Shown: positions 2,932-48,710 of the stretch, one piece after another
How positions within the stretch are numbered: position 1 is the first letter of the stretch
How the letters are laid out: each line of letters begins with the position of its first letter
Assembly (NCBI GenBank): GCA_964586535.1
Contig: CAZPJJ010000002.1
Coordinates: forward strand, 1-49,473
Source of the DNA: an uncultured Acidobacteriota bacterium
GTDB taxonomy: Bacteria; Acidobacteriota; Polarisedimenticolia; J045
Reading direction: 5' to 3'
Length of the DNA: 49,473 bases
Notes under the pieces: model-generated
Databases searched by the model: none
What the model was told of the DNA's origin: nothing
Seen by the model: the letters and a program-made list of their open reading frames with translations, nothing else
Position numbers and translations under genes: made by a program

Positions 2932-4341
2932 GTGACCATGGCCGGTGACAGTCCGCTCTTCGAAGCACTCGCGCGGCCGGCCATCCGGTCCCGGACACTC
3001 GCCGGCGGCACCGCTTTTCTCGCCCTCGCGGCGTGTCTCCTCTCGCCCGCCCAAGCGTCCGCGGACGACGTTGTCTGCGGCGGCCCGGCCGACCCCGAGG
3101 CACTCGTCGAGACGCTCGTATTCCCGGCCGACACCGATCCCGCGATCGACGATTGGCTCCAGCCCCATGTCGCCATGCTCGACACCAGCGTCGAAAGGCG
3201 CGATCTCCTTTTCGTCTTCATGCCCGGGTCGTTCGGCAAGCCAGAGAACACCCGGCTCGTGATCGAGAACGCTGCCCGTCAGGGCTACTTCGCGCTCGGT
3301 CTGCGCTACCCAAACTCATGGACCGTGAATACCCTCTGCGGCGCGACCGGCAGCCTCGCTTGCTTCGAGGACGTGCGCCTCGAGATCATCGACGGCGTCG
3401 ATCGCACTCCCCTGATCTCGATCTCGCGGGCCAACTCCATCGAGAACCGGCTCGCCAAAGCCCTCGCTTGGCTCGCGGAGGCGCAGCCCGAGGAAGGCTG
3501 GGCGCGCTTCCTCGAGGGTGGAGAGCCCCGTTGGGACCGCATCATCGTCGCTGGCCACTCGCAGGGCGGCGGCCACGCCCCCGTCATCGCCAAGCACCGC
3601 GAAGTCGCGCGCGTAAACATGTTCTCCGCGCCCAATGACTTCATCGGAAACCGGCTCGCCGACTGGCTCGACGACGCCCACGTCACGCCGGCCGAGCGCT
3701 ACTTCGGCTTCTCGCACGCCCGCGAGAGCGGTCACACGAATCACCTCGCGTCGTGGGACGTGCTCGGACTCGGCGCGTTCGGCGCCGCCATCCGCGGCGA
3801 CGACGCGGCCGATGATTTCCTCGGCTCGCACGAGATCTACACCGAGATCGAGCCCGCCATCGCCGGCAAAGAGCACGGCTCGACCGCCTCGGACAGCGCC
3901 GTGCCTCTCGATGAGAGCGGCGAACCGCGTCACGCTCGCTCGTGGACCTACCTGCTCGTCGCCCCTCTCGCCGACGACGACGCCGACGGTCGCGCGAACG
4001 GTGTCGACTGCGCTCCCCTCGACGCCGGCGCGTGGTCTCGTCCTTCGGCAGCACGCTCGCTCGCCGTGTCGAAGCACTCGGACACGAATCTCACCTGGTT
4101 CGCCCCGATCGAGCCGGGGGCACCCGCAGTGGTCTATGACGTTCTGCGCTCGGAGATGCCCGCGTCGTTCGACGACGCCACCTGCGTGGCCTGGTCGCTC
4201 GACGAGACATCCGCCTTCGACGGCGCGACACCCGCCCCAGGCCACGTATTCGTTTATGTCATCCGAGCGCGCAACGTGTTCGGTACCAACGAGGGCGAGG
4301 CGAGCGACGGTACGAGACGACGCGGGCCGTCGTGTCTTTGA
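2932..4341 (+). CDS. Exported alpha/beta-fold serine hydrolase with a C-terminal FN3-like module
   Basis: A signal-like N-terminus (AFLALAACLLSPAQASA) and a nucleophile elbow IIVAGHSQGGG are present. The last roughly 110 aa show an FN3-type pattern (NLTWFAPIEPG..VVYDVLR...VFVYVIRARN). The start could instead be the ATG at 2938. Confidence 0.7.
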   Translation: MTMAGDSPLFEALARPAIRSRTLAGGTAFLALAACLLSPAQASADDVVCGGPADPEALVETLVFPADTDPAIDDWLQPHVAMLDTSVERRDLLFVFMPGSFGKPENTRLVIENAARQGYFALGLRYPNSWTVNTLCGATGSLACFEDVRLEIIDGVDRTPLISISRANSIENRLAKALAWLAEAQPEEGWARFLEGGEPRWDRIIVAGHSQGGGHAPVIAKHREVARVNMFSAPNDFIGNRLADWLDDAHVTPAERYFGFSHARESGHTNHLASWDVLGLGAFGAAIRGDDAADDFLGSHEIYTEIEPAIAGKEHGSTASDSAVPLDESGEPRHARSWTYLLVAPLADDDADGRANGVDCAPLDAGAWSRPSAARSLAVSKHSDTNLTWFAPIEPGAPAVVYDVLRSEMPASFDDATCVAWSLDETSAFDGATPAPGHVFVYVIRARNVFGTNEGEASDGTRRRGPSCL

Positions 4342-11538: not shown

Positions 11539-11991
11539 TCAGGCGGGCTTCTCCGCGGCGCGCTTGATGTCGTCGAGATCCTTCGCGCAGGTCGAGAGCA
11601 AGGACTTCTTGATCATCGGCGTCATGAGCCAGCCCATGATTCGCGCGGCGAAGGTGAGGGGAGTGGCCTGAAAGTCCATCGTCACACGCGTGCCGGTTGC
11701 TATTCCCGCGAAGGTGAAGCTGCTCTCGTAGCGTGTGCCGTGGCTCAGGGCGAGCAGTGCGACCCGCCGGGGCGCCACGATCTCGGTGACGGTTATCTCC
11801 TCGGTGGCTTCGCGGCCGAACATGACGCGCGTCTCGCGGAAACGCGTGCCGGCGGCGACGGGGCCCGGCGTGAGCATCTCGACGCGCACGATGCCCTCGA
11901 CGACGTTCGCGGCATTGGCGAAATCGGTCGCGAGCCGAAAGACCGCCTCGGGCGACGCGGCGATGTCGGCAGAGATCGTGGCGCGCATCAT
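11539..11991 (-). CDS. SRPBCC (START / polyketide-cyclase-like) family protein
   Basis: The 150-aa protein has the typical N-terminus (ISADIAASPEAVFRLATDFANAANVVEGIV) and the right size. Its start overlaps the upstream stop by 4 nt (ATGA). Confidence 0.8.
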   Translation of the reverse strand: MMRATISADIAASPEAVFRLATDFANAANVVEGIVRVEMLTPGPVAAGTRFRETRVMFGREATEEITVTEIVAPRRVALLALSHGTRYESSFTFAGIATGTRVTMDFQATPLTFAARIMGWLMTPMIKKSLLSTCAKDLDDIKRAAEKPA

Positions 11992-12644
11992 CTCACTCCG
12001 GGTGCGGACGCTCCGCGGCGCGTGAAGACGAACTCGACGACCTTGGCGTTGGTTTCGCCGATAGGGAGGTCGTGGAGTTCATAGATCATCGTGTCGGCGT
12101 TCGGGAATCTCCAGACGTACTTGACCATCTTGTCGTGCTCGCCCGTGAGGTACTCGTCGAGCGTACCGTAGCCGACGAGCGCGCCGGTCTTGGGGTCGAC
12201 GTCGCCCTCCCAGCGCAGCATCGCGGTATCCATCGACGAGACGGCGCTGGAGACGTACGACTGTTTGAAGTTGTCATACCCGAAGATCGCGAACCACTCG
12301 TTCGGCAAACCCATCATCGTTCCGGTACCGCGTGCCTGCAGCCAGCGGCCTTCCATGAGCCACGAGAAAGTCGCGCTTCCCTTCTCGGCCTTCGCGCCGG
12401 GCATCATCACGACGCGCATTTCGGTGTCCCATGTGCCGAGGAAGCGCTCGAGAAGCGCATGCTGAGCGCCGGGCGCGGTGAACTGCTTGGCCTTGGCCAT
12501 CATCTCGGCCATCTGCTTTTCGTCGATGGCCGGTGCGGGCGGTGCCGGTTTGGGGTCAGCGGCGTGCACGGGTGGCGTGGAGGCGGCGAGCGCGAGGGCT
12601 GCGGCGAGAAGGCTCGTGGCGGTGAACGCGGTTCGGAACGTCAT
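11988..12644 (-). CDS. Exported DUF1579-family protein
   Basis: The signal peptide is MTFRTAFTATSLLAAALALAASTPPVHA. The DUF1579-like core reads LLERFLGTWDTEMRVV...WLMEGRWLQ...FGYDNFKQSY. It forms the C-terminal part of the chimeric 654-aa track ORF. ATGA overlaps occur at both ends. Confidence 0.8.
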   Translation of the reverse strand: MTFRTAFTATSLLAAALALAASTPPVHAADPKPAPPAPAIDEKQMAEMMAKAKQFTAPGAQHALLERFLGTWDTEMRVVMMPGAKAEKGSATFSWLMEGRWLQARGTGTMMGLPNEWFAIFGYDNFKQSYVSSAVSSMDTAMLRWEGDVDPKTGALVGYGTLDEYLTGEHDKMVKYVWRFPNADTMIYELHDLPIGETNAKVVEFVFTRRGASAPGVR

Positions 12645-13792
12645 GGCGATTCTCCAGGCGGAGGCGAGTGAGCCTCGGATGGTGCGGCGTCCGCGCCGGC
12701 GCGTTCGGCGGCGAGACGACGGTAGATCTCGTAGCGAAGCAGGAGACAACCAGGGGGGCGCTCGAGAAGAGCACCGACTTCGGCGACGGCGGCCCCCGAA
12801 AACGGCGCAACGGGGACGAAAGCCGCGAAGAGGACCACGGCGACGAGTCCCGTCGTGACGAGCCGGGCGCGGGCGCGCTCCGGCCGCGCGCGCTCGAGAA
12901 GGCGCAAGCGCGCGAGAAGCTGCGAGCGCGGGCTGATGAAGCCGTGGACTCGAGGGCGTGGCTGCTCGACGAGGCGCAGAGCGACATCGAGGAGCGTGTC
13001 GCGATAGGCGCGGGCATCGCCGTCGAGGCGGCGAACGACCGCGCGGTCGCAGCATTGCTCGCGGAGCGCGGCGAGGCGGAATCCTGCGATCCAGACGAGC
13101 GGATGGAACCAGTACACGGCGGTGAGCGCACAGACGAGAGCGTCCCAGAGCGCATCGCGGTGTTTCACGTGGGTGAACTCGTGGAGCAGGACGTGATCGA
13201 GTTGCTCGGGTGAGTAGCGTGTCTCCACGTGGGCAGGAAGGAGCACGAGCGGCCGGAGGATCCCGACGACGCAGGGGCTTCGCACCGCCGGCGCGGAGAG
13301 GACCTGCGGCGTTCGCGCGAGCCCCGCGCGCCCGGCGGCGGCGTCGAAGCGCGCCTGCAAACCGGAAGGCCACGCAGCGCGAGCGCGGGCGCGCAGCGAG
13401 CGGGCGAGGGCAGCGTAATGGAAGACGCCGATCGCGACGAACGCCGCGGCGCCCGTCGCCCACACGAGAAACGCGGTCTCCGCGCCCGCGATCGCCGCGC
13501 TCTCGGCGTCGGCGCTCGCGAAGGCGACGGTGTCGATCGAGCGCGGCCAATAGGGGAGGGCGAGCGAGGCAGCCTGCCAGACGGAGAGCACTTCCGCGGG
13601 CACGATCAATCGCGCGAGAGCGACGACCCACAGCGCCGCACGCAATTCGGGCCAGGCGCGACGCGGGAGAACGGCGTCGATGGCCGCGGCGGCGAGCAGC
13701 GTGACCGTCGCTTGGAGCGCGAGCGGCGGTACGAACGCCCACCAAAACGCGGTTGCCTCGCGGAGGATCGCGGCATCCGAGAAGTCGGTCAT
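12641..13792 (-). CDS. BlaR1/MecR1-type M56 peptidase (membrane signal transducer)
   Basis: There are multiple N-terminal TM segments and the zinc motif LLHEFTHVKHRD. The gene pairs with a BlaI-type repressor through a 4-nt overlap. Confidence 0.85.
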   Translation of the reverse strand: MTDFSDAAILREATAFWWAFVPPLALQATVTLLAAAAIDAVLPRRAWPELRAALWVVALARLIVPAEVLSVWQAASLALPYWPRSIDTVAFASADAESAAIAGAETAFLVWATGAAAFVAIGVFHYAALARSLRARARAAWPSGLQARFDAAAGRAGLARTPQVLSAPAVRSPCVVGILRPLVLLPAHVETRYSPEQLDHVLLHEFTHVKHRDALWDALVCALTAVYWFHPLVWIAGFRLAALREQCCDRAVVRRLDGDARAYRDTLLDVALRLVEQPRPRVHGFISPRSQLLARLRLLERARPERARARLVTTGLVAVVLFAAFVPVAPFSGAAVAEVGALLERPPGCLLLRYEIYRRLAAERAGADAAPSEAHSPPPGESP

Positions 13793-14187
13793 CGGCGGCG
13801 ACCCTTCTTGGTGGGGCGGGGAGCGCTGTCGCGCTCGGCCTCGAGGAGCGCGCGCAGTTCGTCGCGATCCCTCGCGGTGAGCCGCTCGTCATCGACGATG
13901 TGGGAAATGAGCGCGCCGAAGGTGCCGCCGAAGGCTCGGCCCAGGAGGCCACGTACGGCTTGCCGTCGCGCGTCGGATCTTGAAATCAGCGGCGAGAAGA
14001 CGCCGGTGTTCCCGCGCCGCTCGACGGCGACCGCGCCCTTGTCGACGAGGCGCGTGAGCAAAGTCTTCGCCGTGGAATAGGCCCAGCCGGTCTGGTCGAC
14101 GACACGCTCGTGGACCTCGCGGACCGTCGCGGGCGCGCGTTCCCAGAGCGCGTGCATGACCTTCCACTCGGCATCGCTCAGTTCCAC
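13789..14187 (-). CDS. BlaI/MecI/CopY-family transcriptional repressor
   Basis: The sequence (V)ELSDAEWKVMHALWERAPATVREVHERV...WAYSTAKTLLTRLVDKGAV is the canonical winged-helix penicillinase-repressor pattern. The GTG start lies 6 nt after AGGAGA. Confidence 0.9.
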   Translation of the reverse strand: MELSDAEWKVMHALWERAPATVREVHERVVDQTGWAYSTAKTLLTRLVDKGAVAVERRGNTGVFSPLISRSDARRQAVRGLLGRAFGGTFGALISHIVDDERLTARDRDELRALLEAERDSAPRPTKKGRRR

Positions 14188-14236: not shown

Positions 14237-14463
14237 CTGTCAATCGAAGATTCGGCAAGATGTGACCCGGTGAGACTAGCGAGATGGTAAGTTGCCACGG
14301 GGGCGCGTTCCCGCGACATGCGACGCGACGCTCCCCAGCCGCGGCGTCGGCCGCGCTGCGCCCGAAGAGCGGCTCTCGCGACCTTAGCGTGCAGGGAGGC
14401 GTGGCAAGCGACCGGCGTCCTCGGTGGAGCGCATCGCGAACACGAGGTTGGCGAGTGCGCTCG

Positions 14464-15942
14464 TCAGGGAATCGCGTCGCAAGCATCGACGTCGGGAGCG
14501 GTATTGGGCGTGAAGAAGAAGCGCTTGAGCTCCGGTGCGCCGGTGCCCTGATATCCATCGCCCCACGACGTGAATTCCCCCGCGTAGCGCGCGAGCATGT
14601 ACCAGGAGTCCCTGAGGTGAGCATCGTCGGGGACGGTCACGCGATCGAAGGGATGCGCTTTCGTCACGCAACGCACATCCGAAATGACGGTGCAGTCGAA
14701 CGCGCGGCTGCAGCCGGGCGCGAGGCGAAGATCCGCGATCGAGCCTTGAATGACGTCGAGAGGCTGGCCGGCCTGGGCGCCCTGACAGGCTCCCTTCGTG
14801 ACGCGGATGACGGGGTCGGCTCCGCTCGCGTCGACGACCTGGACACAGGCTTCCGCGGGAATGCCCTGCGCACGCGACTGGAACGCGAGTTGGACGGTCA
14901 CGGACTTGGTCTCGTTGGGCAGGATCGTGCCGAGATCGAAGCGCATGGAGCCGGCGACCTCGTCGCTCGCGAGGAACGCCTCGTTGGCGAGCGATTGGCC
15001 CTCGATGTCGCAGTGTTCGCCGACGACGGGCTTCATGCCGCCGGTTTGCGGAAGTCCCGCATCCCCGGGATTGTGACCCCGGTAGGAACCGAGGCCGTGC
15101 GCGTTCGGGGCGACGTTCGCCGAGAGTCCGACGTGGTCGGTGAACGTGCTTCCCGTGGGGAAGCCGTCGATGAGCCCGGAGTTGGTCGCGAATCCCGAGA
15201 TGTCGAAGCGATAGTCCTGATGGGCGCCCGCGGGATGCGGCAGATCGTCATAGGCAATCGAGGCCGTCGGCGTCTCGGTGTTGGCGGGGTGAGAGTGCGA
15301 GAGCTGATAGAGATGGATCCCCGTGATCGCTTCGGCGGTGATGTTGCGGATTTCATAGGTCTGCCGGAGCACGAAGGGATTGCTCAGTTCGTAGGGTTCT
15401 TCGCGCGCCATCCCCCGTCCCATGGCGACGCCGGTTCCCGTGTTGTCGAAGTCGTAGCGAATCGTCACCTCGAGGTGATCGTTGGCGATGACGGACGATC
15501 CTTCGAGGATTCCGTCGGCGTCTGGGTCGTCGGGAAATAGGACTTCCTGGAGGATCTGGAAATTGGAGTTCGTTCTCCATTCCGGGTAACGAAAGCACGA
15601 TTCGAGCCAGATCGGCTCCATCCCGTCGTAGGCGATCGCCGCGGCCCACTCCCCCGAGAACATCTCGTGGAGCGGCTCCGGCCCTCCGGGCAGGCGGGGA
15701 TCCGTCCGTGGAAACGGCGGCAGTGTGTAGACGCCGAAGTCGGAGTAGCCCGAGGGCGTGAATTGCATGAGCCAATGCGGATTGGCGTACACCGCGACCG
15801 GAATGGTGTCGAGTTCTTCCTGTGTGCAGACCGTGACCGCGGGAACGCATTCACGGTCGAGCGCCAGCGCGCGCGGAGTCGAGGCGAGGGGTGCGCACGC
15901 TGCGAGGCCAATAACGACGAAAGTGAGAGCGGGGCGCTTCAT
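14464..15942 (-). CDS. Exported hypothetical protein (492 aa), no family recognised
   Basis: The start MKRPALTFVVIGLAACAPLASTPRALA has the SD GGGAGG 7 nt upstream. Coding bias is good. The C-terminal third is Cys-rich. The upstream 376 codons of the 868-aa track ORF are Arg/Pro-rich antisense junk. Confidence 0.7.
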   Translation of the reverse strand: MKRPALTFVVIGLAACAPLASTPRALALDRECVPAVTVCTQEELDTIPVAVYANPHWLMQFTPSGYSDFGVYTLPPFPRTDPRLPGGPEPLHEMFSGEWAAAIAYDGMEPIWLESCFRYPEWRTNSNFQILQEVLFPDDPDADGILEGSSVIANDHLEVTIRYDFDNTGTGVAMGRGMAREEPYELSNPFVLRQTYEIRNITAEAITGIHLYQLSHSHPANTETPTASIAYDDLPHPAGAHQDYRFDISGFATNSGLIDGFPTGSTFTDHVGLSANVAPNAHGLGSYRGHNPGDAGLPQTGGMKPVVGEHCDIEGQSLANEAFLASDEVAGSMRFDLGTILPNETKSVTVQLAFQSRAQGIPAEACVQVVDASGADPVIRVTKGACQGAQAGQPLDVIQGSIADLRLAPGCSRAFDCTVISDVRCVTKAHPFDRVTVPDDAHLRDSWYMLARYAGEFTSWGDGYQGTGAPELKRFFFTPNTAPDVDACDAIP

Positions 15943-16098
15943 GACCGGCCTCCCGTATTCCCCTGCGGGTCGAGCCCGTGGACATGGGCGAGGGCCAGGA
16001 CCCGCTGACCGAAGGTCCCGGCGCCGGCGGCTAACTCGGGAACTCGCAAAAGTTACGGGGAGGGAGTCGCCGGAGCAACGGGCGATAGCGGATCGCTG

Positions 16099-16731
16099 AT
16101 GATCGAGTCCAGCGAGAGCCGCCAGGGGTGCCTGGAAGTACCATCTGGCCCGACGCACGCTCCGCGGGAGCGAGGGGAGGCGGGCCCCATCGTGGGTACG
16201 AGATCCGAGAACGGCATCCCCGCGCCCGATCTCGCCGAGATCCGCGCCGAGGTCGCCCGGGCCATCCGCGAACACTGTCCCCGCGGCCTCGCCTCGCGCG
16301 CGGACGATCTCGCCCAGGACGTGCTGGTCAAAGTCCTCGAACGCGCGCGGGAAAGTGAAGGAGAGCCCGTCCGCCATTCGTCCTACTGGCGAAGGGCTGC
16401 GTACCACGCGCTGATCGACGAGATCCGCCGCCAGCGCCGCCGCCGGGAGGAGAGCTTGGACCACGACTCCGCGGGAGACACCTGGGCCGCTCCGGCGCAC
16501 CACGATCCGGCTCGGCGCGCGCTCGGTCGCGAGGTCGGGGTCGCGATCGAGGAATGCCTGGCGGGGGTGCGCGAAGGACGGCGGCTTCCGGTCTTCCTCC
16601 ACCTGCAGGGGCACAGCGTGCCCGAGGCTTCGGGACTGCTCGGCTGGGCGACGAAGCGCACCGAGAGCGCGCTCCTCCGCGGACTGCAGGACCTTCGGGC
16701 CTGCCTCCGCTCCAAGGGGTTCGGACGATGA
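16099..16731 (+). CDS. ECF-type RNA polymerase sigma-70 factor
   Basis: Region 2 reads DDLAQDVLVKVLERA...YWRRAAYHALIDEIRRQRR. Region 4 reads RLPVFLHLQGHSVPEASGLLGWATKRTESALLRGLQDLRACL. The start is uncertain, and a GTG near 16192 is possible. Confidence 0.85.
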   Translation: MIESSESRQGCLEVPSGPTHAPRERGEAGPIVGTRSENGIPAPDLAEIRAEVARAIREHCPRGLASRADDLAQDVLVKVLERARESEGEPVRHSSYWRRAAYHALIDEIRRQRRRREESLDHDSAGDTWAAPAHHDPARRALGREVGVAIEECLAGVREGRRLPVFLHLQGHSVPEASGLLGWATKRTESALLRGLQDLRACLRSKGFGR

Positions 16732-17372
16732 GCGCCGAGGACCGTGATCTGCGCGATGCGTGGCGCGAGCGCGCCCCGCGCTCGCCCGGCGGTTGTCCCG
16801 ATGCCGAGGCGATCCGCCGCGCCGCGACGGGTCAGGCGCGTCCCGCCGAGGTGCGCGCCGTCGCCGAGCACGCGATGCGCTGCGCCGGCTGTGCGGAGGA
16901 TTGGCGGCTGGCGCGGGCACTCTCTGCGGACGCCACGCCCGCACTCGAGCGCCCGGCGATGCGGCGGCGGGCGTGGCACGCACCTCTCCTGGCCGCCGCG
17001 GCGTTGGTGATCGGCGTCGCGGGGATCGGGCTCGTGGCACTTCGCGCCCCCATGCAGACGGATGCGGCATGGCGCGACGCGACCTCCGCGGCGATTCGCT
17101 CGACGCTCATCGAGAACTCGTCGCTGCCCCGCGACCGTTTTCGACTAGCCTGGACGCCGGGCCCGGCGGGAACGGTCTACGACGTGGAGGTCGGCACTCC
17201 GAGTCTCCAGGTTCTCTCACGCGAGCGGGCGCTGACGTCGCCTGAGTACCTCGTCCCCACGGAGCACCTGACGGATGTCCCCGCCGGCGGAGTCGTCGCG
17301 TGGCGCGTCGAAGCGACGCTGCCCGACGGGCGCCGCGTGGCCTCGGTGACGCATCTCAACCGAGTGCGCTGA
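16728..17372 (+). CDS. Zinc-finger (HxxxCxxC) anti-sigma factor with one TM segment and an extracytoplasmic FN3-like domain
   Basis: The ATG overlaps the sigma stop (ATGA). The zinc-finger anti-sigma (ZAS) motif is HAMRCAGC and the TM segment is APLLAAAALVIGVAGIGLVAL. The C-terminus reads RFRLAWTPGPAGTVYDVEV...VVAWRVEATL. Confidence 0.75.
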   Translation: MSAEDRDLRDAWRERAPRSPGGCPDAEAIRRAATGQARPAEVRAVAEHAMRCAGCAEDWRLARALSADATPALERPAMRRRAWHAPLLAAAALVIGVAGIGLVALRAPMQTDAAWRDATSAAIRSTLIENSSLPRDRFRLAWTPGPAGTVYDVEVGTPSLQVLSRERALTSPEYLVPTEHLTDVPAGGVVAWRVEATLPDGRRVASVTHLNRVR

Positions 17373-17380
17373 GTCGCGTG

Positions 17381-20212
17381 ATGGCGGGTCGTCTCTCCAT
17401 CGTCTTCACCGTGGTGCTCATGCTCTGCGCACAGCCAAGCGTAAGGGCGAGCGACGCGGATCCAGTCTGCTCGAGCCGATACGCAGCGCCTCCCGCGGAC
17501 GTCTGGGACGTCGAGTGCTGGCTCAATCCGCAGGACGGCGTCGTCGATCGCGCGGCGCTCCTGACCCGGCTCCAGGACTGGTTGAAGGATCGCCCCGGCG
17601 ATCCGTGGGTCGCGCTCGCCGCGGCGAGCGAGCAGGTGGAGCGCGCGGGGAAGGGCGTCGAAGCGCACGCCGCGGCGGCGATCGAGATCTTTCAGGAACG
17701 CGGCGACCGCGACGGCGAGGCAATGGCGGAAGCGATTCGCGCGCGCCATTTCCACCGCTATCGGCGCGAGACCGAGCGCGCGGCCTCGCTCGCACGCCTG
17801 AGGGAACTCGCGGCTGACGGCGCCGATCCGCTGATCCGAGCGCGCGCGCTGCTCGCCGACATCGACCTCGCCGAAACCGAAGCGCGCATCGACGATGCGT
17901 ACCAGCTCGCCAAGGCCGCGTCGCTGGTGCCCGATTTCGAGACCTTGCCGCGCACGACCAAGCTCGGCGTTCTCTTGCGGCGGAAGAACACGGCCATCCA
18001 GCTCGGCCGCTACTCCGAGACGCTCGCGCTGATCGATCGTACGCGGGCGATCTGCGGCGAGCGTCGCTTCTGCCTCGACCGCGATGCTCTCGATCGCGCT
18101 CGGCTCGCGCGCTACATGCACGCGAACTGGCAGGAGGACCGTGAGGTCGCCGCCGAGCTGACACGCATCGCATACGAGCGGTCGCACGGATCGGGATCGC
18201 ACTGGGCGAGCCTCATCGAGGCCTGCGAGGCGGGGCGGCTCACGGATCCGCCCGAATCGCTGAAGTGGTTCGAGCGCTGCGGGCAGATCGCCGCGGACCT
18301 TCGCTGCGACGACGTGCGCTTGGTGGCGAAGGGCTTGCACGCCGTGGGTGTGGCGCGTCTCGATCCGAGCCGGATCGACGAGTCGCTCGCCCGGATGCCC
18401 TCGATCGTCGAGGGCCTGCGCCGCGTGGGCGTCGTCCACGAGGAGATCGCCGGACTCGCGAACTGGAGCAGCCTGCTACGCGATGCGGGGCGCATCGACG
18501 AATCGCTCGACGTGCTGCGCCGGGCGGTTGCTCTCGCGGAGAGCATGCACGACCGGCAGCTCGACGCCGACATGCGCGCCGACAAGATCGCGTTCGAGGC
18601 CAAACAGTTCTACGACCTCGCCTATCAACTGGCGCTCGCCCCGGAGACCGCTTCGGCGCACGACCTGGGCGCCGCGCACGAGGTGCTCGAGCGCTTTCGC
18701 GTTCGCGCGTCGCAGCTCGAGCTCAGGCGGGCGGATGTAGGGCTGACGAGTGAAGAGGGCGCGGAGACGGCGAGTCCGCTGCGCGAATCGTTGGCGAAGA
18801 CGCGCGCCGCCATCGTCGAGATCCAGGGCCAGCTTCGCGTGACGACGCTGCCGGACCACGACCGGGACGAGCGGCTTCGCGAACTGGAGCGTCACGAAAC
18901 CGAAGAGCGACGACTCGTCAACCGACTCGCGCGCAGCGACGCCGGGTCGTTCGAGCGCGTGACGCCCTACGTAGCCTCGCTCGACTCGGTACGCGCGGTG
19001 CTCGAACCGCGTGAGGCGCTCGTGACTTTCCAGATTGCCTCGGTGCCGGGCCGCCGTCCGTGGGCTCTCGTCGTCACCCGCGACGAGGCGCGGGCCGTCG
19101 CTCTCGGCAACACGCCTCTCGAGCCGGCGCTGGGACTGCTCACGGGGCTGCTTTCGCGACGCGACGGGTCGGAAAGCGCCGCGCTCGACGAACTCGGTGC
19201 AGCGCTCATCGAGCCCTGGTTCGCGTCTCTCGACGGCTCGCTCGATCGCGTGGTCATCGTTCCGGATGGGCGGCTCTTCGAGATCCCGATCTCCGCGTTG
19301 CCCATCGAACGAGGTGGAGAGCCCGTGAGCGCGCGCGTCAGCGTGGCGGTGGTCGCGTCGGCGACAGAGTTCGCGCTGGGGCGAACCCGCGCGGTGGCCC
19401 GGCCTCCCCGTGCGGCGCTTGCGCTCGCGCACTCGCCAGCGGTGCGCTTGGCGGCGACGCGTTCGCGCGATGCGAGTCTCTTCGCGGCGGACGTTGGCGC
19501 CCTCGCCGAAGCGGCGAGCGAGGCGCGCGCTGTGGCGAGAGCGCTCGGTGCGGAGTCACGGGTGCTCGAGGCGCAGAGCGCGAGCGAGCGCGCCGTCAAG
19601 CGCTTGCACTTCGAGCCCTTCGGAGTGGTTCACGTTGCGGCGCACGCTCTCACCAATCACGAGATGCCGGGGCGCTCGGCGATCATCCTCGCTGCGGGCG
19701 CGCCGGATGAGGATGGCCTGCTTCAACCGCGTGAGATCGCCGCGCTGCGTCTCGACGGGCGACTCGTCGTGCTGGCTGCCTGTGCGAGCGCGGCAGGCCC
19801 CGAGGTGCGCGGAGGCGGACCGCGGAGCCTCGCTGCCGCGTTTCTTCACGCCCGCGCGGGAGCCGTCGTCGGCACCCTCTGGCCTGTTCGCGATGCGGAC
19901 GCGCGGCGCTTCGCCGACTTCTTCTATCGCGAGCTAGCCGCCGGGTCGACGGTGGGGGATGCCCTCGCTCGCGCTCAGCGCACACTACGGGAGCAGGGTG
20001 AACCGACGACGAACTGGGGCGCCTATGTGCTCTACGGGGATGCCCGGCTGAGTTTGCCGACGGCGGAACGAGCATCGAGCGGGGTGACGTCGCTGGCGGC
20101 GCGGGCCGGGTGGATCGCGCTCGTGATCTTCGCGGTGGGGGTCGCGGGAGGGGCGAGCGCGCTCATCTTGCGCGGTCGACGGAAGAAACCCGGAGGAGCC
20201 GCCGAGGCCTGA
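17381..20212 (+). CDS. Exported helical-repeat / CHAT-domain (caspase-like) protease with a C-terminal TM anchor
   Basis: The signal peptide is MAGRLSIVFTVVLMLCAQPSVRA. About 600 aa of Leu/Ala/Arg-rich helical region follow. The CHAT His/Cys dyad context is GVVHVAAHAL and LVVLAACASAAG, then GTLWPVRD. The C-terminal anchor is WIALVIFAVGVAGGASALIL followed by RGRRKK. The gene starts 9 nt after the anti-sigma stop. Confidence 0.85.
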   Translation: MAGRLSIVFTVVLMLCAQPSVRASDADPVCSSRYAAPPADVWDVECWLNPQDGVVDRAALLTRLQDWLKDRPGDPWVALAAASEQVERAGKGVEAHAAAAIEIFQERGDRDGEAMAEAIRARHFHRYRRETERAASLARLRELAADGADPLIRARALLADIDLAETEARIDDAYQLAKAASLVPDFETLPRTTKLGVLLRRKNTAIQLGRYSETLALIDRTRAICGERRFCLDRDALDRARLARYMHANWQEDREVAAELTRIAYERSHGSGSHWASLIEACEAGRLTDPPESLKWFERCGQIAADLRCDDVRLVAKGLHAVGVARLDPSRIDESLARMPSIVEGLRRVGVVHEEIAGLANWSSLLRDAGRIDESLDVLRRAVALAESMHDRQLDADMRADKIAFEAKQFYDLAYQLALAPETASAHDLGAAHEVLERFRVRASQLELRRADVGLTSEEGAETASPLRESLAKTRAAIVEIQGQLRVTTLPDHDRDERLRELERHETEERRLVNRLARSDAGSFERVTPYVASLDSVRAVLEPREALVTFQIASVPGRRPWALVVTRDEARAVALGNTPLEPALGLLTGLLSRRDGSESAALDELGAALIEPWFASLDGSLDRVVIVPDGRLFEIPISALPIERGGEPVSARVSVAVVASATEFALGRTRAVARPPRAALALAHSPAVRLAATRSRDASLFAADVGALAEAASEARAVARALGAESRVLEAQSASERAVKRLHFEPFGVVHVAAHALTNHEMPGRSAIILAAGAPDEDGLLQPREIAALRLDGRLVVLAACASAAGPEVRGGGPRSLAAAFLHARAGAVVGTLWPVRDADARRFADFFYRELAAGSTVGDALARAQRTLREQGEPTTNWGAYVLYGDARLSLPTAERASSGVTSLAARAGWIALVIFAVGVAGGASALILRGRRKKPGGAAEA

Positions 20213-20443
20213 GCGTCCTTCCCAGCAAGGACGGATCGGCGCTCGCGGTGGCAGGACCCCGTGGCTCGATCCGACGCTCGCGTCGCCGCCGAGATCCGTG
20301 CGCGTCCATGATGGGCTCGCTGTCAGCTCGACGGCACCGACAACGACAGCGCGGGCGACAGATTCCTTCCCGACCCAAGGTGATGCGGAGGAGGCGCGAT
20401 AGTCTCGAGGCTCGTTCGGAGAGGCGAGGTCCGAGAATCTGTA

Positions 20444-20878
20444 TCAGCACGGCGGATCGCTCTGGTCGCTGTCATCATGACGCCATCGCCAGATCCTTCC
20501 GCCCAGACCGATGAGCAGCACGAGAAGTGCCGTCGCTGCGAGGATGCGCGCCGTCAAGGGTTCGTGGAAGGCTGCTATCGCGGCCGTGACCACGATGAAG
20601 AGAAACGTCGCGACGTTGAGCGCGTGGTTCAGCTTGAAGACCCCGCGACCGGTGCGTGCGACGGGATGGTCGTCCGGCAACACGGGCCGCTCGAGAGCTT
20701 CGCGTACGCCGCTGCGTTCGGCAAAGGCGAGGATTGCGTACGAGATCAAGATGACGGCTCCCAGACCCAGCATGAGCGAACCCGCGAGCACCACGTTCGC
20801 GTCCTCCGCGCGACCCTCCGCGCTGCTCACATAGAGGAGAAGCACGACTCCACAGGCGAACAGCACGATCGCCATCAC
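20444..20878 (-). CDS. Hypothetical integral membrane protein (about 4 TM segments)
   Basis: The 144-aa ORF has alternating hydrophobic segments and acceptable GC3 bias. No family was recognised. Confidence 0.5.
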   Translation of the reverse strand: MMAIVLFACGVVLLLYVSSAEGRAEDANVVLAGSLMLGLGAVILISYAILAFAERSGVREALERPVLPDDHPVARTGRGVFKLNHALNVATFLFIVVTAAIAAFHEPLTARILAATALLVLLIGLGGRIWRWRHDDSDQSDPPC

Positions 20879-23168: not shown

Positions 23169-23513
23169 TCAGCGCCAGCCGCGATCGCCGCCGCGGTCGC
23201 CGCCGCCGCCGCCGCCGCCGCCGCGGTTGTAGCCGCCGCCGCCGCCGCCGCCGCCGCGATTCTCGCGGGCCTGGGCCTCGTTGACCTTCAGGTTACGGCC
23301 CATGAAGTCGGTGCCGTCGAGAGCGCGGATCGCCTTCTGGGCGTCCTCAGCGGTCTCGGTCTCCACGAAACCGAAGCCACGGGGGCGGCCGGTCTCGCGG
23401 TCCATGATGAGGGTCACGGAGGTGACGTTGCAGCCAGCTTCGGTGAAGAGGGCGCGAACGTCCTCGTCGCTGGCTCGGAAGGGGAGGTTGCCGACGTAGA
23501 GCTTGGAACCCAT
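23169..23513 (-). CDS. RRM-type RNA-binding protein with a Gly/Arg-rich tail
   Basis: The sequence MGSKLYVGNLPF (RNP2) ...RPRGFGFVE (RNP1) ...AIRALDGTDFMGRNLKVNEA is followed by the tail GGGGGGGGYNRGGGGGGGGDRGGDRGWR. Confidence 0.9.
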   Translation of the reverse strand: MGSKLYVGNLPFRASDEDVRALFTEAGCNVTSVTLIMDRETGRPRGFGFVETETAEDAQKAIRALDGTDFMGRNLKVNEAQARENRGGGGGGGGYNRGGGGGGGGDRGGDRGWR

Positions 23514-23841
23514 CTGACTCTGTCTCCGATTCGCGTCTGCGAATCCTGCCGAGTCCCGCACCTTGGATCGACTGACCGAGACAAGGAACGAAGCCGCCCG
23601 CCGAAGGCCGGCGAGGCCCGAGGTTGCGGCACGTCACGCTACCGTTTCTGTACGGGAGGATGATGCCGGGACTCGACGGGAAAATCGCAGACAACTGCCA
23701 GTCTGTCAAGAGCTTTTCCAAAAGGGCGGGTCCCGAAACGCCTCGGCGTCGATCCTCCGACGGGGCAGGCGGGGAGGCGAGCTAGACTCTAGGGTCTTGG
23801 GCGCGTCCCAGCCACGAGAGGGAGGCGCGGGAGTCAACACG

Positions 23842-28780: not shown

Positions 28781-28816
28781 GGGGACGGTCGACTTAGAGG
28801 GACAGGCGACTGTCCC
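28781..28816. repeat. REP-like cluster 2: one 17-nt unit (GGGGACGGTCGACTTAG) and the hairpin GGGACAG-GCGA-CTGTCCC
   Basis: Read directly from the sequence. The cluster starts 12 nt after the stop of the preceding gene and belongs to the same family as 504-584 and 48630-48710. Confidence 0.75.
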
Positions 28817-35504: not shown

Positions 35505-35684
35505 TCGCCGAATGATAGGTGCGATCGCCCCCCATCTCGCCTGAACAGACTCTAACCAAACTGCTGACCCGGTCTTGGCTCCTGTTATCTCGCACACTTC
35601 CTTCTGGTGCCCACCAACGGTTGGAATCGCGGTCTCATCCGGGCGATATCCGCGTTTCTCGCTGCAATCTCCAGGAGGTTCGCC

Positions 35685-38675
35685 ATGTCCCGCATCGCTT
35701 CCCTCGGGCTGTTCGTGCTCGTCTTCGCCCTTGCTGGTCCGGCGCTCTCCAACGATCGCGATACGAAGGTGCGGACGTCATGGTCCTCCGTCGTGGTCGA
35801 CGTGCGCTTCGCGTCCCCGGCGCTGAGCGAGCGCGGTGACGGGACCGTCCTGGCCTGGGTGCCCACGCTCCGATCTCGCGCCGCGCGACCGGGGGCGCCG
35901 CTGCTCCCCGAGAAGCAGCTCTCAGTGCTTCTGCCTCCGGGGACTCGCGTTGCCTCCGTGCGCATCGACGGGGTCGCGGAGACGCACACCAGCGCCCTCC
36001 GTGTGGCCTGGGGGCAGCCGCCGAGGCCGATCGGGCACGAGGCGCTCGCAAGAGTCCCGGCGGATCCCGAGATCTACGCGAGCGACGCGCTCCACCCCGC
36101 TCGCGTCGCGCAGGTGGCGCGAGTGGGGCGCTTCCGCGGCTACTCCGTGGCAACCCTCGTCCTCGCGCCGGTGCAGGTGAGGCCCCGCCTCGGGAAGATC
36201 GTCTTCTGGTCGCGTATGAGCGTCACCCTGGAACTCGAGAAGGACCCCGCCGCGCTCGCCGCGACGCCGCGCGGACTCGTCGAGGACGCGCTCGCGTTGG
36301 CCAAACTCGTCGCCAATCCGGATGCGGCCTCGCTCTACGACGCGCCCACCGCGAAGAGCGCGAGCGAGCCCTACCTGATCGTCTGCGCGGACTCGCTCTG
36401 CGCCAGTTTCGAGCGGCTGCTCAACCATCGCGCTGCGCACGGCATGGCGGGCCGCATGCTCTCCGTCTCCGCCATCGAAGCCGCCTACAGCGGTCCCGAC
36501 ACGCCCGCGAAGATCCGCGAAGCCATTCGCGAGGCGTACGCGACGCGCGGGACGACGCACGCGCTGCTGGCCGGCGACGACGTCGGCAACGGCGGCGAGA
36601 CGCTCGTCCCCTATCGCGGTTGTCTGCTCGATGCGGGCGGCTACCGCTATACCGACGCGCCCGTCGATTTCTACTTCGGCGCCCTCGACGGCTCCTGGAA
36701 CACCGATGGGGACACGGTTTGGTGCGAGCCCGATGAGATCGACTACTTCTCGGAAGTGCACATCGGGCGTGCCACCGTGGACACGCCTGCAGAAGCCGAC
36801 CGTTTCATCGACAAGGTTCTGGCCTACGAGGCGGGACTCGCGGCCGATCGCCAGCGCGATCTCGTCTGGATCGGCGAGTCGCTCGACGCGTCCACCTGGG
36901 GCGGCGATTCGAAGGACGTGACCGCGGCGCTCGTCCCCGCGGACGAGTACGAGATCTCGCGGCTCTACGATCGTGAGGGCACCTTTTCACGGCAGAACGT
37001 GATCGCGGCGCTCAATCGCGGGCCGCACCTGACGAATCATCTCGGGCACGCCAACTCGAGCTACGTGATGGGCATCTACAGCAGCGACGTGGACGCGCTC
37101 GTCAACGAGTCGCCGTTCTTCTCGTACACGCAGGGTTGCGACGCCGGCGCGTTCGACCAGAAGTTCAGCGGTTCGTCCGAGGCCGTTTCCGAGCATTTTA
37201 TTTTCGCGGAGCACGCGGCGTTCGGCATCGTCGCCAACGTGCGCTACGGGTGGTATTCGCCCGGAGCGACCAACGGCCCGAGCCAGTATTTCGATCACGA
37301 GTTCTACGACGCGCTCTTCACCGAGAATCTCGACACGCTGGGCGCGGCGAACGACGACGCGCGGCACGACAACGCCGCTCTCTCGCAAGGAGACGAATAC
37401 CTGCGTTGGTGCTTCCTCGAAACCAACCTGCATGGCGATCCGGCGACGCCGGTGGCCGTTGGCAGGCGCTTCCGCGTGAATGCGACGCGTGTCATCGACG
37501 TGGACCCGCTTCACGGCAACGCCAACGGCATGGCCGATCCCGGCGAGGTCTTGCGCCTGGCGGTCACGCTCGAGAATACACGAGGAGAGGACGCCGCTGG
37601 CGTCGAAGGGCGGCTCTCGTCGGGTCTCGCCGGGGTCGTGGTTCACGATCCGTATGCGGCGTGGGGACTCGTCGAGGCGCACGCCGCGCAGGAGAACGCG
37701 CCGCCGCACTTCACCTTCGAGGCCGACGTGCCCTGCGGAACCTTCGTCCCCTTCCAATTGGAAATCGTCGACGCCAGCGGCGAGTCCGAGTCGCTCTCTT
37801 TCACCGTGCTCATGGGGGAGCGGACGCAGCGGGTCCTCTTCGAGGACGACTTCGAAGAGGACCATGGATGGGCGCATTCGGGAACGTGCAGCGACGGCGC
37901 GTGGGAGCGCGGCGAACCTCGCGGCACGCTGAACGGCGCGGAGCCCGCGAATCCCGACCTGGATGCGAGCCCGGACCCCGGCACTCTCGCCTTCGTCACG
38001 GGCAACGCGGGGCTCTCGGCGACGGACGACGACGTCGATCACGGGACCGCTTTGCTCACCAGTCCCGCGCTCGATGCGTCGGGCTATCTCGACCTGCGCG
38101 TGTCGTATCAGCGCTGGTACTACATCTCGCCCTACACGACGCCCCCCTCGAACACGCTGCGCGTCGAAGCCAGCGGCGACGACGGCGAGACGTGGGTCGA
38201 ACTCGAGCGCGTCGTGAGCACGGAGACGCCGTGGGCGGCGAAGACGTTCCCGCTCGAGAGCGCGATTCCGCTCGACACCGTGCGTCTGCGCGTCGTGGCC
38301 GAGGAGATAGCGATGGGTACGCGCGACGTGATCATCGAGGCCGGGCTCGACGAGGTGCGCTTCGAGGGGACGTGGACGCGCTGCGAAGACTTCGTTCCGC
38401 CGGCGCTCTCTCCACCCGCTCCCGTGGGCGCGACCCTCACCGCGACCCGCTCGGGCGAACACGTGATGCTCACTTGGCTGGCCCCGCCCGAGGATCCCGC
38501 TCACGGCCCCGCGACTTTCTATCGCGTCGAGCGCGCGTTGCTGCACGAGGCGCTCTGGCTGCCGCTGGGTGAGCCTTTGGCCGAGCAGTGGATGGACTGT
38601 GGCGCCTGCGCGGACGGGATCTCGTATCAATACCTGGTGACGGCGGGCAACGCGGCGGGCCCCGAGGTCCCCTGA
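35685..38675 (+). CDS. Exported peptidase C25 (gingipain-like cysteine peptidase) with a C-terminal beta-sandwich / MAM-like / FN3-like cassette
   Basis: The ATG lies 5 nt after AGGAGG and a signal peptide is present. The C25 core reads YLIVCADSL...LLAGDD...FYFGALDGSWNTDGD...HIGRA, the His context is LTNHLGHAN, and the Cys context is YTQGCDAGAFD. The C-terminal cassette is homologous to that of the M14 gene at 47421-48611. Confidence 0.85.
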   Translation: MSRIASLGLFVLVFALAGPALSNDRDTKVRTSWSSVVVDVRFASPALSERGDGTVLAWVPTLRSRAARPGAPLLPEKQLSVLLPPGTRVASVRIDGVAETHTSALRVAWGQPPRPIGHEALARVPADPEIYASDALHPARVAQVARVGRFRGYSVATLVLAPVQVRPRLGKIVFWSRMSVTLELEKDPAALAATPRGLVEDALALAKLVANPDAASLYDAPTAKSASEPYLIVCADSLCASFERLLNHRAAHGMAGRMLSVSAIEAAYSGPDTPAKIREAIREAYATRGTTHALLAGDDVGNGGETLVPYRGCLLDAGGYRYTDAPVDFYFGALDGSWNTDGDTVWCEPDEIDYFSEVHIGRATVDTPAEADRFIDKVLAYEAGLAADRQRDLVWIGESLDASTWGGDSKDVTAALVPADEYEISRLYDREGTFSRQNVIAALNRGPHLTNHLGHANSSYVMGIYSSDVDALVNESPFFSYTQGCDAGAFDQKFSGSSEAVSEHFIFAEHAAFGIVANVRYGWYSPGATNGPSQYFDHEFYDALFTENLDTLGAANDDARHDNAALSQGDEYLRWCFLETNLHGDPATPVAVGRRFRVNATRVIDVDPLHGNANGMADPGEVLRLAVTLENTRGEDAAGVEGRLSSGLAGVVVHDPYAAWGLVEAHAAQENAPPHFTFEADVPCGTFVPFQLEIVDASGESESLSFTVLMGERTQRVLFEDDFEEDHGWAHSGTCSDGAWERGEPRGTLNGAEPANPDLDASPDPGTLAFVTGNAGLSATDDDVDHGTALLTSPALDASGYLDLRVSYQRWYYISPYTTPPSNTLRVEASGDDGETWVELERVVSTETPWAAKTFPLESAIPLDTVRLRVVAEEIAMGTRDVIIEAGLDEVRFEGTWTRCEDFVPPALSPPAPVGATLTATRSGEHVMLTWLAPPEDPAHGPATFYRVERALLHEALWLPLGEPLAEQWMDCGACADGISYQYLVTAGNAAGPEVP

Positions 38676-38821
38676 TCCCCGGGGGGTGTGCAGGAGGCGA
38701 GGCCGCCCCTTTCTGGTGATGGCGGCTCTCGCCCCGTTCTCGCGTTCTCCCTTTCGAGGACCGGCGGCTAACGGCGTCCAGTCACGCTGTTAGAATGGTC
38801 GTCGGCGACAGAGGGGATGCG

Positions 38822-39415
38822 ATGTCCGCACCGAGCGAAGTCACGGTTCTGCTCCAGGCTTATCGCGACGGAGACCGCGCCGCATTTGATCGGCTCGTCC
38901 CGCTCGTCTACGGCGACCTGAAGCAGATCGCCCGCAGGCTGCTTCGGGGGCGAGCTGTCGGCCAAACGCTCTCGGCGACGGGTGTCGTACACGAGGCCTG
39001 GCTGAAACTCGTCGATCACACCGGCGCGAGTTGGAACGATCGCGGGCACTTCCTCGCGGTCTCCGCGCGCGCGATGCGCCAAGTCGTCATCGACTACGCG
39101 CGCGAAAAGAAAGCCGCGAAGCGCGGAGGCAACGCCGCGCTCGTGACGCTCGACGAGGCCTCGGTCATCGACGACACCGAGACGACGTGGGTGCTCGCAG
39201 TCGACGAGGCCATCCGTAAGCTCGGAGAGCACAGCGAGGATCTCGCGCGGATCGTGGAGTGCCGCTTCTTCGGGGGCTACAGCGAGCAAGAGACAGCCGA
39301 TGCGCTGGGACTCTCGTTGCGTACCGTGCAACGCGGCTGGCCGCGGGCGCGGGCCTGGCTGAAGGAGGTCCTGCGAACCGTGGAGGCCGGCGAGGGGCAG
39401 AGTGGAGGCGGGTGA
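38822..39415 (+). CDS. ECF sigma factor of the kinase-associated Sigma70_ECF (TIGR02999-like) type
   Basis: The sequence VTVLLQAYRDGDRAAFDRLVPLVYGDLKQIARRLL....TLSATGVVHEAWLKL...HFLAVSARAMRQVVIDYAR... is the hallmark of this subfamily. Region 4 reads YSEQETADALGLSLRTVQRGW. An alternative start lies at 38795. Confidence 0.85.
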   Translation: MSAPSEVTVLLQAYRDGDRAAFDRLVPLVYGDLKQIARRLLRGRAVGQTLSATGVVHEAWLKLVDHTGASWNDRGHFLAVSARAMRQVVIDYAREKKAAKRGGNAALVTLDEASVIDDTETTWVLAVDEAIRKLGEHSEDLARIVECRFFGGYSEQETADALGLSLRTVQRGWPRARAWLKEVLRTVEAGEGQSGGG

Positions 39416-48629: not shown

Positions 48630-48710
48630 CTCGAACAGCGGGGACAGTCGACTTAGGGGGACAGTCACCCTAAGTCGCCTGTCCCCCTAAGTCGCCTGTC
48701 CCCCTAAAGT
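48630..48710. repeat. REP/REPIN-like cluster 3: one full and one partial forward unit, then three inverted tandem units (CTAAGTCGCCTGTCCCC) with a 17-nt period
   Basis: The forward unit lies at 48630-48646. The inverted units lie at 48660-48676, 48677-48693 and 48694-48710. The cluster sits between the convergent 3-prime ends of the M14 and desaturase genes. Confidence 0.85.

Follow-up and report, generated by a model that had tools for sequence, protein, structure and literature searches.

A conserved sigma / anti-sigma / TPR-CHAT operon of Acidobacteriota as a candidate split counterpart of the DdvA anti-sigma switch

In this work we analyse a three-gene operon in a stretch of DNA of 49,473 nucleotides from an uncultured Acidobacteriota bacterium (Polarisedimenticolia, lineage J045; contig CAZPJJ010000002.1 of assembly GCA_964586535.1), the whole of which is called the window below. 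The three genes lie on the same strand at 16099-20212 (+) of this window, the GC content of which is 70%, and encode a sigma factor of the extracytoplasmic function (ECF) type, an anti-sigma factor and a caspase-like protein with tetratricopeptide (TPR) repeats and a CHAT domain:

16099-16731, plus strand: ECF (group IV) sigma factor of 210 amino acids (aa), identified by Pfam Sigma70_r2 and an orthologue profile.
16728-17372, plus strand: single-pass anti-sigma factor of 214 aa, identified by its AlphaFold2 (AF2) model and family hidden Markov model (HMM) matches.
17381-20212, plus strand: TPR-CHAT caspase-like protein of 943 aa, predicted to be exported and membrane-tethered, identified by Pfam CHAT, AF2 and Foldseek.

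The genes follow one another with hardly any space between them. An ATGA at 16728-16731 holds both the TGA stop of the sigma gene (16729-16731) and the ATG start of the anti-sigma gene (16728-16730), and the anti-sigma stop (17370-17372) is separated from the CHAT ATG at 17381 by 8 nucleotides (nt). An earlier note on this DNA had described a coupled sigma / anti-sigma / CHAT operon, which the overlap and the short second gap confirm; its spacing of 9 nt between the last two genes holds if one counts to the first base of the ATG, whilst the true gap is 8 nt. The operon comprises these three genes only, since the next gene downstream (20444-20878) is on the opposite strand. The GC content at third codon positions (GC3) is gene-like (>0.8) in all three, and each has Pfam or fold support.

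We read the operon as an envelope signalling module of three genes that is conserved in Acidobacteriota. Its gene order is kept in 15 of the 16 independent loci that have sufficient flank, all from Acidobacteriota where a name is given, with the identity of the sigma factor falling to about 40%, and the recurrence of the triad across genomes that the earlier note proposed to look for is therefore found. A genome scan with the anti-sigma alignment gave six loci, all in Acidobacteriota (Mor1, two paralogous loci in one metagenome-assembled genome, Holophagae and Polarisedimenticolaceae), a metagenome scan gave five further ones, and tblastn showed the same three-gene order wherever the contig was long enough. 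The Mor1 locus lies near 2.439 Mb of CP011806, in a bacterium that can be cultured. The triad extends to more distant members, at 36-41% identity, of which two have tandem CHAT genes and one an extra gene of 189 aa. Coupling of the ATGA type between the sigma gene and the downstream anti-sigma gene is kept across loci, and the anti-sigma/CHAT junction shows a start/stop overlap or a spacing of <=24 nt in 11 of them, with genes overlapping by 1-4 nt in L005, L009, L018, L021 and L025 and gaps of 2-24 nt in L004, L008, L020 and L023. Only the three triad genes are common to the loci; their flanks differ. The anti-sigma family itself is large and unnamed, its members being labelled 'hypothetical protein': an HMM search, exhaustive over 1.84 billion representatives, returned 1,752 cluster representatives (50% identity) with E<=1e-10, of which 848 also pass E<=1e-30. 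The top 150 of these 848 are all 200-250 aa long, so there is no fusion among the 150. When the context of six members from this search was read, the triad was present in five (L020, L021, L023, L024 and L025) and absent in L022.

By its sequence, the first protein is an ECF (group IV) sigma-70 factor. It matches Pfam Sigma70_r2 with 29.7 bits (cutoff 24; 5.5e-7), its region 4 stays below the cutoff of Sigma70 r4_2 (17.7 bits), and its L005 orthologue passes both cutoffs. Against the Protein Data Bank (PDB), the profile of the sigma orthologues matches SigW (7e-10) and SigE of Mycobacterium tuberculosis (1e-9), as well as SigL and CnrH, in a range reaching to 8e-6. The main text of Casas-Pastor 2021 on ECF classification mentions no CHAT-linked ECF group. 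The true start of the protein may be the GTG at 16192, which would give 179 aa; this start is favoured by the Shine-Dalgarno-like run AGGGGAGG 10 nt upstream of it and by the length of 179 aa, similar to that of the orthologues. Three cysteines are invariant in the family (10 orthologues; 16192-16731 in the window), in an N-terminal 'CP', in a 'DCL' at the start of sigma-4 and in a 'RACL' close to the C-terminus. These are unusual among ECF sigma factors and might point to metal or redox sensitivity.

In the anti-sigma factor, the following parts can be told apart:

16794-16892, plus strand: CHCC zinc-binding motif C23...H48-x3-C52-x2-C55, predicted to be cytoplasmic, seen from conservation in the family.
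16980-17045, plus strand: transmembrane (TM) helix, aa 85-106, from the AF2 helix and hydropathy.
17046-17087, plus strand: juxtamembrane periplasmic linker, aa 107-120, with a W115-R116 motif (R116 at 17073-17075), from low values of the predicted local distance difference test (pLDDT) and a conserved Arg.
17088-17369, plus strand: FN3-like beta-sandwich, aa 121-214, predicted to be periplasmic, from AF2 (pLDDT >95) and Foldseek.

C23, H48, C52 and C55 are conserved in 96%, 98%, 99% and 98% of 161 family members, respectively, and on this pattern they are a putative CHCC zinc site, with the ligands conserved as in the N-terminal part (DdvA-Nt) of the Myxococcus anti-sigma factor DdvA. The window protein lies below detection by Pfam zf-HC2 and has no Pfam match at all; its orthologue in Mor1 (L005) reaches 24.3 bits with zf-HC2 against a cutoff of 22.2. 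The sole hydrophobic segment spans aa 87-105 (hydropathy 2.64), and six basic residues precede it as opposed to two after it, which argues for an N-terminus inside and an FN3 domain outside. The AF2 model (mean pLDDT 79.6) has helices at aa 3-15, 26-33, 39-51 and 53-69 besides the TM helix at 85-106, and then a linker that appears disordered (pLDDT <50 over aa 101-119). R116 is retained in 154 of 161 sequences (96%) with Y, F or W before it, whilst the rest of the linker is variable and Pro-rich, making W115-R116 a candidate cleavage or docking site. The best PDB matches of the sandwich in Foldseek are tissue factor, IL-22R1 and Clostridium Fn3 modules (E 1.6e-4 to 1e-3). With its zinc motif, N-terminal helical domain and one TM helix, the modelled protein appears to be a class I zinc-binding anti-sigma (ZAS) factor.

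The third protein is the largest of the operon and consists of four parts:

17381-17449, plus strand: signal peptide, aa 1-23 (...VRA/SD, cleavage before SD), from its h-region and AxA-type site.
17549-19000, plus strand: helical scaffold of TPR-like repeats, aa ~57-540, from AF2 secondary structure.
19181-20041, plus strand: CHAT domain, aa 601-887, with H755 (19643-19645) and C801 (19781-19783), from Pfam.
20108-20188, plus strand: TM anchor at the C-terminus, aa ~910-930, with a basic tail, RGRRKK, predicted to be cytoplasmic, from hydropathy.

A signal peptide of the AxA type is found in every orthologue whose N-terminus was read. Just past it is a cysteine pair, C30/C46, conserved in 16 of 17 copies (all those with an aligned N-terminus), and from this position the pair fits an exported, disulfide-bonded protein. 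The protein profile matches the TPR proteins PINS, OGT and CTPR over aa ~200-400. The CHAT domain matches PF12770 over profile positions 3-289 of 289 (E 3.8e-46), and its His755/Cys801 dyad is invariant in 17/17 CHAT copies of the family and in 34 diverse TPR-CHAT proteins. Sequence searches of PDB with this protein gave separase and TPR proteins only, the C801 region aligning with the catalytic-Cys region of separase (1.3e-5). A C-terminal TM segment is present in every complete orthologue and is followed by an Arg/Lys-rich tail in all of them except L016. The AF2 model, built on the broad alignment A4 of the 34 diverse TPR-CHAT proteins and poor over the N-terminal 130 aa, reaches a predicted TM-score (pTM) of 0.72 and shows an alpha/beta CHAT domain ending ~20 residues before the anchor. 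In Foldseek it matches Csx29 (3e-14), DdvA (8RW5/8ROT; 8.5e-12, over ~940 aligned columns at 15-16% identity), separases (~1e-10) and, weakly, SAVED-CHAT (E about 1e-4).

These results bear out the architectures drawn in the earlier note, that is, an anti-sigma factor with an HxxxCxxC zinc finger, one TM segment and an extracytoplasmic FN3-like domain (by motif, hydropathy, AF2 and Foldseek), and a 943-aa protein with a signal peptide, helical repeats, a CHAT His/Cys dyad, both residues of which are present on alignment, and a C-terminal TM segment. Its expectation that the CHAT domain and the anti-sigma sensor domain share one side of the membrane also stands by rule, both being placed in the periplasm. 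As for the family HMMs that it named, CHAT PF12770 and Sigma70_r2 are matched in the window, whilst r4_2 and zf-HC2 are not and are reached by the L005 orthologue.

Two further properties of the TPR-CHAT protein were considered and rejected. A PEP-CTERM-type sorting signal at the C-terminus has no NCBIfam match and no conserved PEP or GlyGly motif, leaving a plain anchor. For a specificity for Arg at P1, as set in separase by Asp2151 (PMC10317155), the aligned position varies in the CHAT family of the window (by hand residue count). D838 is conserved in the family, and across the 34 diverse TPR-CHAT proteins it hardly varies. A cleavage specificity cannot be inferred.

The coupling of the genes, their near-universal co-occurrence across deep divergence, the placement of both domains on one side of the membrane, an intact dyad near it and the existence of a fused counterpart in another phylum together make action on the anti-sigma factor the most likely role of the CHAT protein, probably as its site-1 protease, a reading which, drawn from sequence and analogy, we put at a probability of roughly 0.4. 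That a regulatory link of some kind joins protease and anti-sigma factor is, we infer, well supported. In the resting state, the ECF sigma factor would be held at the inner membrane by the CHCC zinc finger of the anti-sigma factor, the periplasmic part of which is short, with a Pro-rich linker and one FN3-like domain as predicted. The CHAT protein would be exported by means of its cleavable signal peptide and, through its C-terminal TM helix, anchored on the periplasmic face of the inner membrane, so that its caspase/separase-type domain would stay no more than about 20 residues away from the membrane, near the anti-sigma linker and FN3 domain. Binding of a periplasmic protein or peptide cue to the TPR-like scaffold might then activate CHAT, which would contact the anti-sigma factor and cut its periplasmic part in trans, as site-1 protease; a site-2 protease of the RseP type, together with proteases of the cytoplasm, would complete the removal of the anti-sigma factor and free the sigma factor for its presumed regulon. 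The fuller statement, of a widespread Acidobacteriota module in which a membrane-tethered periplasmic TPR-CHAT protein is the dedicated trans site-1 protease of an FN3-bearing zinc anti-sigma factor and cuts perhaps at the aromatic-Arg motif, is proposed with somewhat more hesitation.

The nearest precedent is the DdvA-DdvS pair of Myxococcus (Sci Adv 2024). DdvA is a single anti-sigma protein in which a TM helix and a flexible linker join a ZAS domain of the CHCC type to a periplasmic scaffold/TPR/CHAT part; stripped of TPR-CHAT, it becomes exposed to RseP (PMC11506125). Its authors propose that the signal-activated CHAT cuts the linker in trans within a dimer, serving as its own site-1 protease, and state that this cleavage will be verifiable only once the signal is found; they term it the only characterised anti-sigma factor of its kind, with similar fusions confined to some Myxococcota and one Comamonas (PMC11506125). 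The window operon shares with it an ECF sigma factor, a CHCC single-pass anti-sigma factor and a periplasmic scaffold/TPR/CHAT unit of ~900 aa with a His-Cys dyad, and the logic proposed here, of a CHAT domain cutting a juxtamembrane linker before RseP, is the same. What is one polypeptide in DdvA, however, is two genes in the window, encoding ZAS-TM-FN3 and signal peptide-TPR-CHAT-TM proteins, and the polarity is opposite: the window TPR-CHAT carries a signal peptide of its own and is predicted to be anchored by a TM segment at its C-terminus, whereas the CHAT of DdvA is distal to an N-terminal TM helix. Lack of the three-helix motif in the CHAT active site, which is completed in the dimer, is a feature of DdvA. 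DdvA is in addition tied to an adjacent CBASS/CRISPR defence island, whilst the neighbours of the window operon are ordinary metabolic and envelope genes; it belongs to Myxococcota as opposed to Acidobacteriota; and its fusions are reported as rare, in contrast to the hundreds of clusters in the window anti-sigma family. On the models, the window operon could be seen as, in effect, DdvA split into two polypeptides, a trans version of it.

The earlier note had taken Csx29 and Csx30 as precedent, and DdvA-DdvS, where ZAS, TM helix and periplasmic TPR-CHAT share one polypeptide, has to replace them. In the type III-E Craspase, Cas7-11/gRAMP and the TPR-CHAT protein Csx29 act with Csx30, Csx31 and CASP-sigma (PMC10028731). 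Likeness to the window lies in the TPR-CHAT fold, Csx29 being the top Foldseek match, and in the control that a protease in the end has over a sigma factor of the ECF type. Craspase, however, works in the cytoplasm, is guided by RNA and linked to CRISPR, and has in Csx30 a substrate that is soluble and not a ZAS protein, whereas the window CHAT protein is predicted to be exported and membrane-anchored. In the SAVED-CHAT/PCaspase cascade and in CalpL-CalpT-CalpS, type III CRISPR signalling proteases release ECF-like sigma factors (bioRxiv 10.1101/2023.06.23.546230), by the same protease-gated anti-sigma/sigma logic and, in SAVED-CHAT, with a protease of the CHAT family too; unlike the window module, both are cytoplasmic, activated by cyclic oligoadenylate and linked to CRISPR.

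Canonical regulated intramembrane proteolysis (RseA with DegS/RseP, RsiW with PrsW/RasP) offers the other comparison. There, too, a single-pass anti-sigma factor has a cytoplasmic sigma-binding and a small extracytoplasmic domain, and the best solved relative of the window sigma factor is SigW, the ZAS anti-sigma factor of which, RsiW, is eliminated by a cut at site 1 followed by one at site 2. To our knowledge, the known site-1 proteases are serine or metalloproteases (DegS, PrsW, Prc/CtpB-type), usually encoded outside the operon, as opposed to the window candidate, which is a putative cysteine protease of clan CD with its gene inside the operon. What is already known is the DdvA-type periplasmic TPR-CHAT/ECF switch; what is new is its split, widespread variant, and no description of a split sigma / ZAS / CHAT operon was found in the literature searched. 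The idea of the earlier note that a protease gates this sigma factor stands unrefuted by triad recurrence, dyad and topology, with a nearer precedent than the one it cited, and its 'stand-alone envelope version' is a variant of a type already described.

Several observations weigh against a CHAT site-1 protease. A protein encoded in the same operon might just as well be an output under regulation. The model of CHAT as site-1 protease is still a hypothesis in DdvA itself, and the similarity to DdvA is at the level of fold only (Foldseek), where Csx29 scores slightly better; a link to DdvA or DdvS in sequence was sought and rejected, since neither phmmer nor profile searches of PDB, made for each of the three proteins and reaching to E<=10 with the CHAT and anti-sigma profiles, matched a DdvA chain. 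L022 has a sigma/anti-sigma pair with no CHAT gene within 7 kb downstream. The aromatic-Arg motif of the linker is not strictly tied to the presence of CHAT, its Arg being missing in the CHAT-linked anti-sigma factor of L020 and present in that of CHAT-less L022. The topology was read from hydropathy, the positive-inside rule and AxA rules, not from SignalP/TMHMM. Finally, no common ECF-type promoter was found upstream of 10 orthologous sigma genes: when bipartite 5-mer/4-mer motifs with spacers of 14-18 nt were enumerated, the top motif occurred in 3 of 10 upstream sequences, whilst shuffles attain 3-5. A sigma-70 and terminator scan of 14300-20600 was uninformative. As the promoter searches gave no common motif, no regulon can be inferred.

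Two other models of what the TPR-CHAT protein does are live. In the first, it would be a co-anti-sigma factor or sensor that binds FN3 and shields the anti-sigma factor from the site-2 protease, like RseB or the bulky periplasmic domain of DdvA, until a signal makes it release or cut itself or its ligand, and a general protease, not CHAT, would trim the anti-sigma factor. Coupling, co-occurrence and same-side topology serve this model as they serve a site-1 protease, and the block of RseP by the TPR-CHAT domain of DdvA, the typical protein-binding nature of FN3 modules and the loose association of the linker Arg with CHAT all speak for it. Invariance of the dyad in every one of the 17 copies, however, argues that catalysis matters, and an FN3 domain so small might need no additional shield, and we regard this course of events, taken as a whole, as unlikely.

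The second model turns the order around, with CHAT as the output of the system: sigma and anti-sigma factors would sense through FN3 alone, and the tethered protease would be an effector of envelope quality control, surface remodelling or anti-phage defence. Main target genes often lie within ECF operons, the pair in L022 does without an adjacent CHAT gene, tandem duplicates such as those of CHAT in two loci are commoner for effectors, and BovA, a protein of Borvo defence, is matched by the CHAT domain at 5e-11, though only at the level of the domain. Against this, the overlapping stop and start codons suggest stoichiometric co-production, the arrangement is kept in 15/16 loci across deep divergence, the same type of domain is in DdvA physically part of the anti-sigma factor, and the C-terminal anchor places CHAT beside the anti-sigma linker; as an account of the operon, an output role is doubtful. 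A fortuitous arrangement of unrelated neighbours or mis-called open reading frames (ORFs), for which one could invoke the numerous long spurious ORFs at 70% GC, is extremely improbable given the Pfam/fold support and gene-like GC3 of all three genes and the same gene order in 15 independent loci, a survey of synteny that effectively refutes it.

If the CHAT protein is indeed a site-1 protease, clan CD would have its first cysteine protease shown to initiate the regulated proteolysis of an ECF anti-sigma factor and would join the known site-1 protease types. The operon would then give the self-cleavage hypothesis for DdvA a natural two-component form, with no tie to CRISPR or other defence islands. 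In its split form, protease and substrate are on separate polypeptides that can be separately mixed, mutated (C801A, R116A) and titrated, which offers a handle on the CHAT cleavage proposed for DdvA. Acidobacteriota are a major and poorly studied phylum of soil and sediment; confirmation would mean that periplasmic caspase-like proteases coupled to ECF sigma factors are common in them and not a myxobacterial oddity. A large family of 'hypothetical protein' entries also gains an annotation at the level of function.

Some of the other triad loci have peculiarities of their own. Both loci with tandem CHAT genes hold a 51-52 aa ORF between the anti-sigma gene and the first CHAT gene (L015 6900-7055 and L024 4793-4951), and the two products end in a common conserved C-terminus, DPYCCTPPD..PGPIGG at the stop; such a product might act as a ligand or a substrate, or be a peptide that is secreted or modified. 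In Holophagae, the CHAT gene (L007 3444-6149) is split over two frames near 3839-4011 with its dyad intact, being either a pseudogene or a recurrent assembly error, and L010, L012 and L013 carry the same operon as L007 at identical tblastn identities. In L022 (7001-8560), the anti-sigma gene is followed by genes for an HlyIII-family membrane protein and a Y_Y_Y sensor, with Fur and a catalase-peroxidase encoded upstream. An extension of the sigma association to the distant TPR-CHAT genes of L001 and L002 was rejected: of their two small upstream genes, Pfam gave a weak FecR match only, and in hhalign neither the sigma nor the anti-sigma profile aligned with significance.

The window itself encodes, around the operon, AidB, DUF1579, BlaI/BlaR1, a CN hydrolase, an amidase, a VIT-VWA protein, a C25 peptidase, a pair of ECF sigma factor and Ser/Thr kinase, and an M14 peptidase. 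It holds no cas genes, no genes of the cyclic-oligonucleotide-based antiphage signalling system (CBASS), no CRISPR array and no site-2 protease gene within its 49 kb, and its sole PADLOC match is the one to BovA through the CHAT domain. Divergent from the operon is an ORF of 492 aa (14464-15942, minus strand) with a lipoprotein-type signal (VIGLAAC), 11 cysteines and no Pfam, NCBIfam or PADLOC match. The earlier note had made its product a candidate regulon member or signal, which finds no support: there is no relative of the gene beside any other triad locus and no promoter motif in common, and we reject it as part of the system.

Just upstream of the triad lies a second protease-gated signalling pair, formed by a BlaI-type repressor (13789-14187) and a BlaR1/M56 sensor-protease (12641-13792), both on the minus strand with overlapping stop and start codons and followed by an exported DUF1579 protein, the region as a whole spanning 11988-14187. 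Further along, at 35607-42059 (+), a C25 (gingipain-type) peptidase of 1022 aa precedes a PF07638-type ECF sigma factor (38795-39415), the gene of which overlaps that of a Ser/Thr kinase with a long TPR region (39402-42059), in the known ECF-plus-kinase arrangement; a kinase related to this one is encoded directly downstream of the CHAT gene in L009. A 17-nt repeat, GGGGACAGTCGACTTAG, has eight copies in the window (0.08 expected), tandem and inverted, in intergenic positions at 504-584, 28781-28797 and 48640-48703, and looks like a repetitive extragenic palindromic (REP) element. A tandem repeat of 81/162 nt with ~3 copies and 74-78% matches (42958-43431) is found inside the ORF 42917-43390, and a small RNA-binding protein of the RNA recognition motif (RRM) type (23169-23561, minus strand) has a Gly/Arg-rich tail that comes partly from a CGC-rich repeat.

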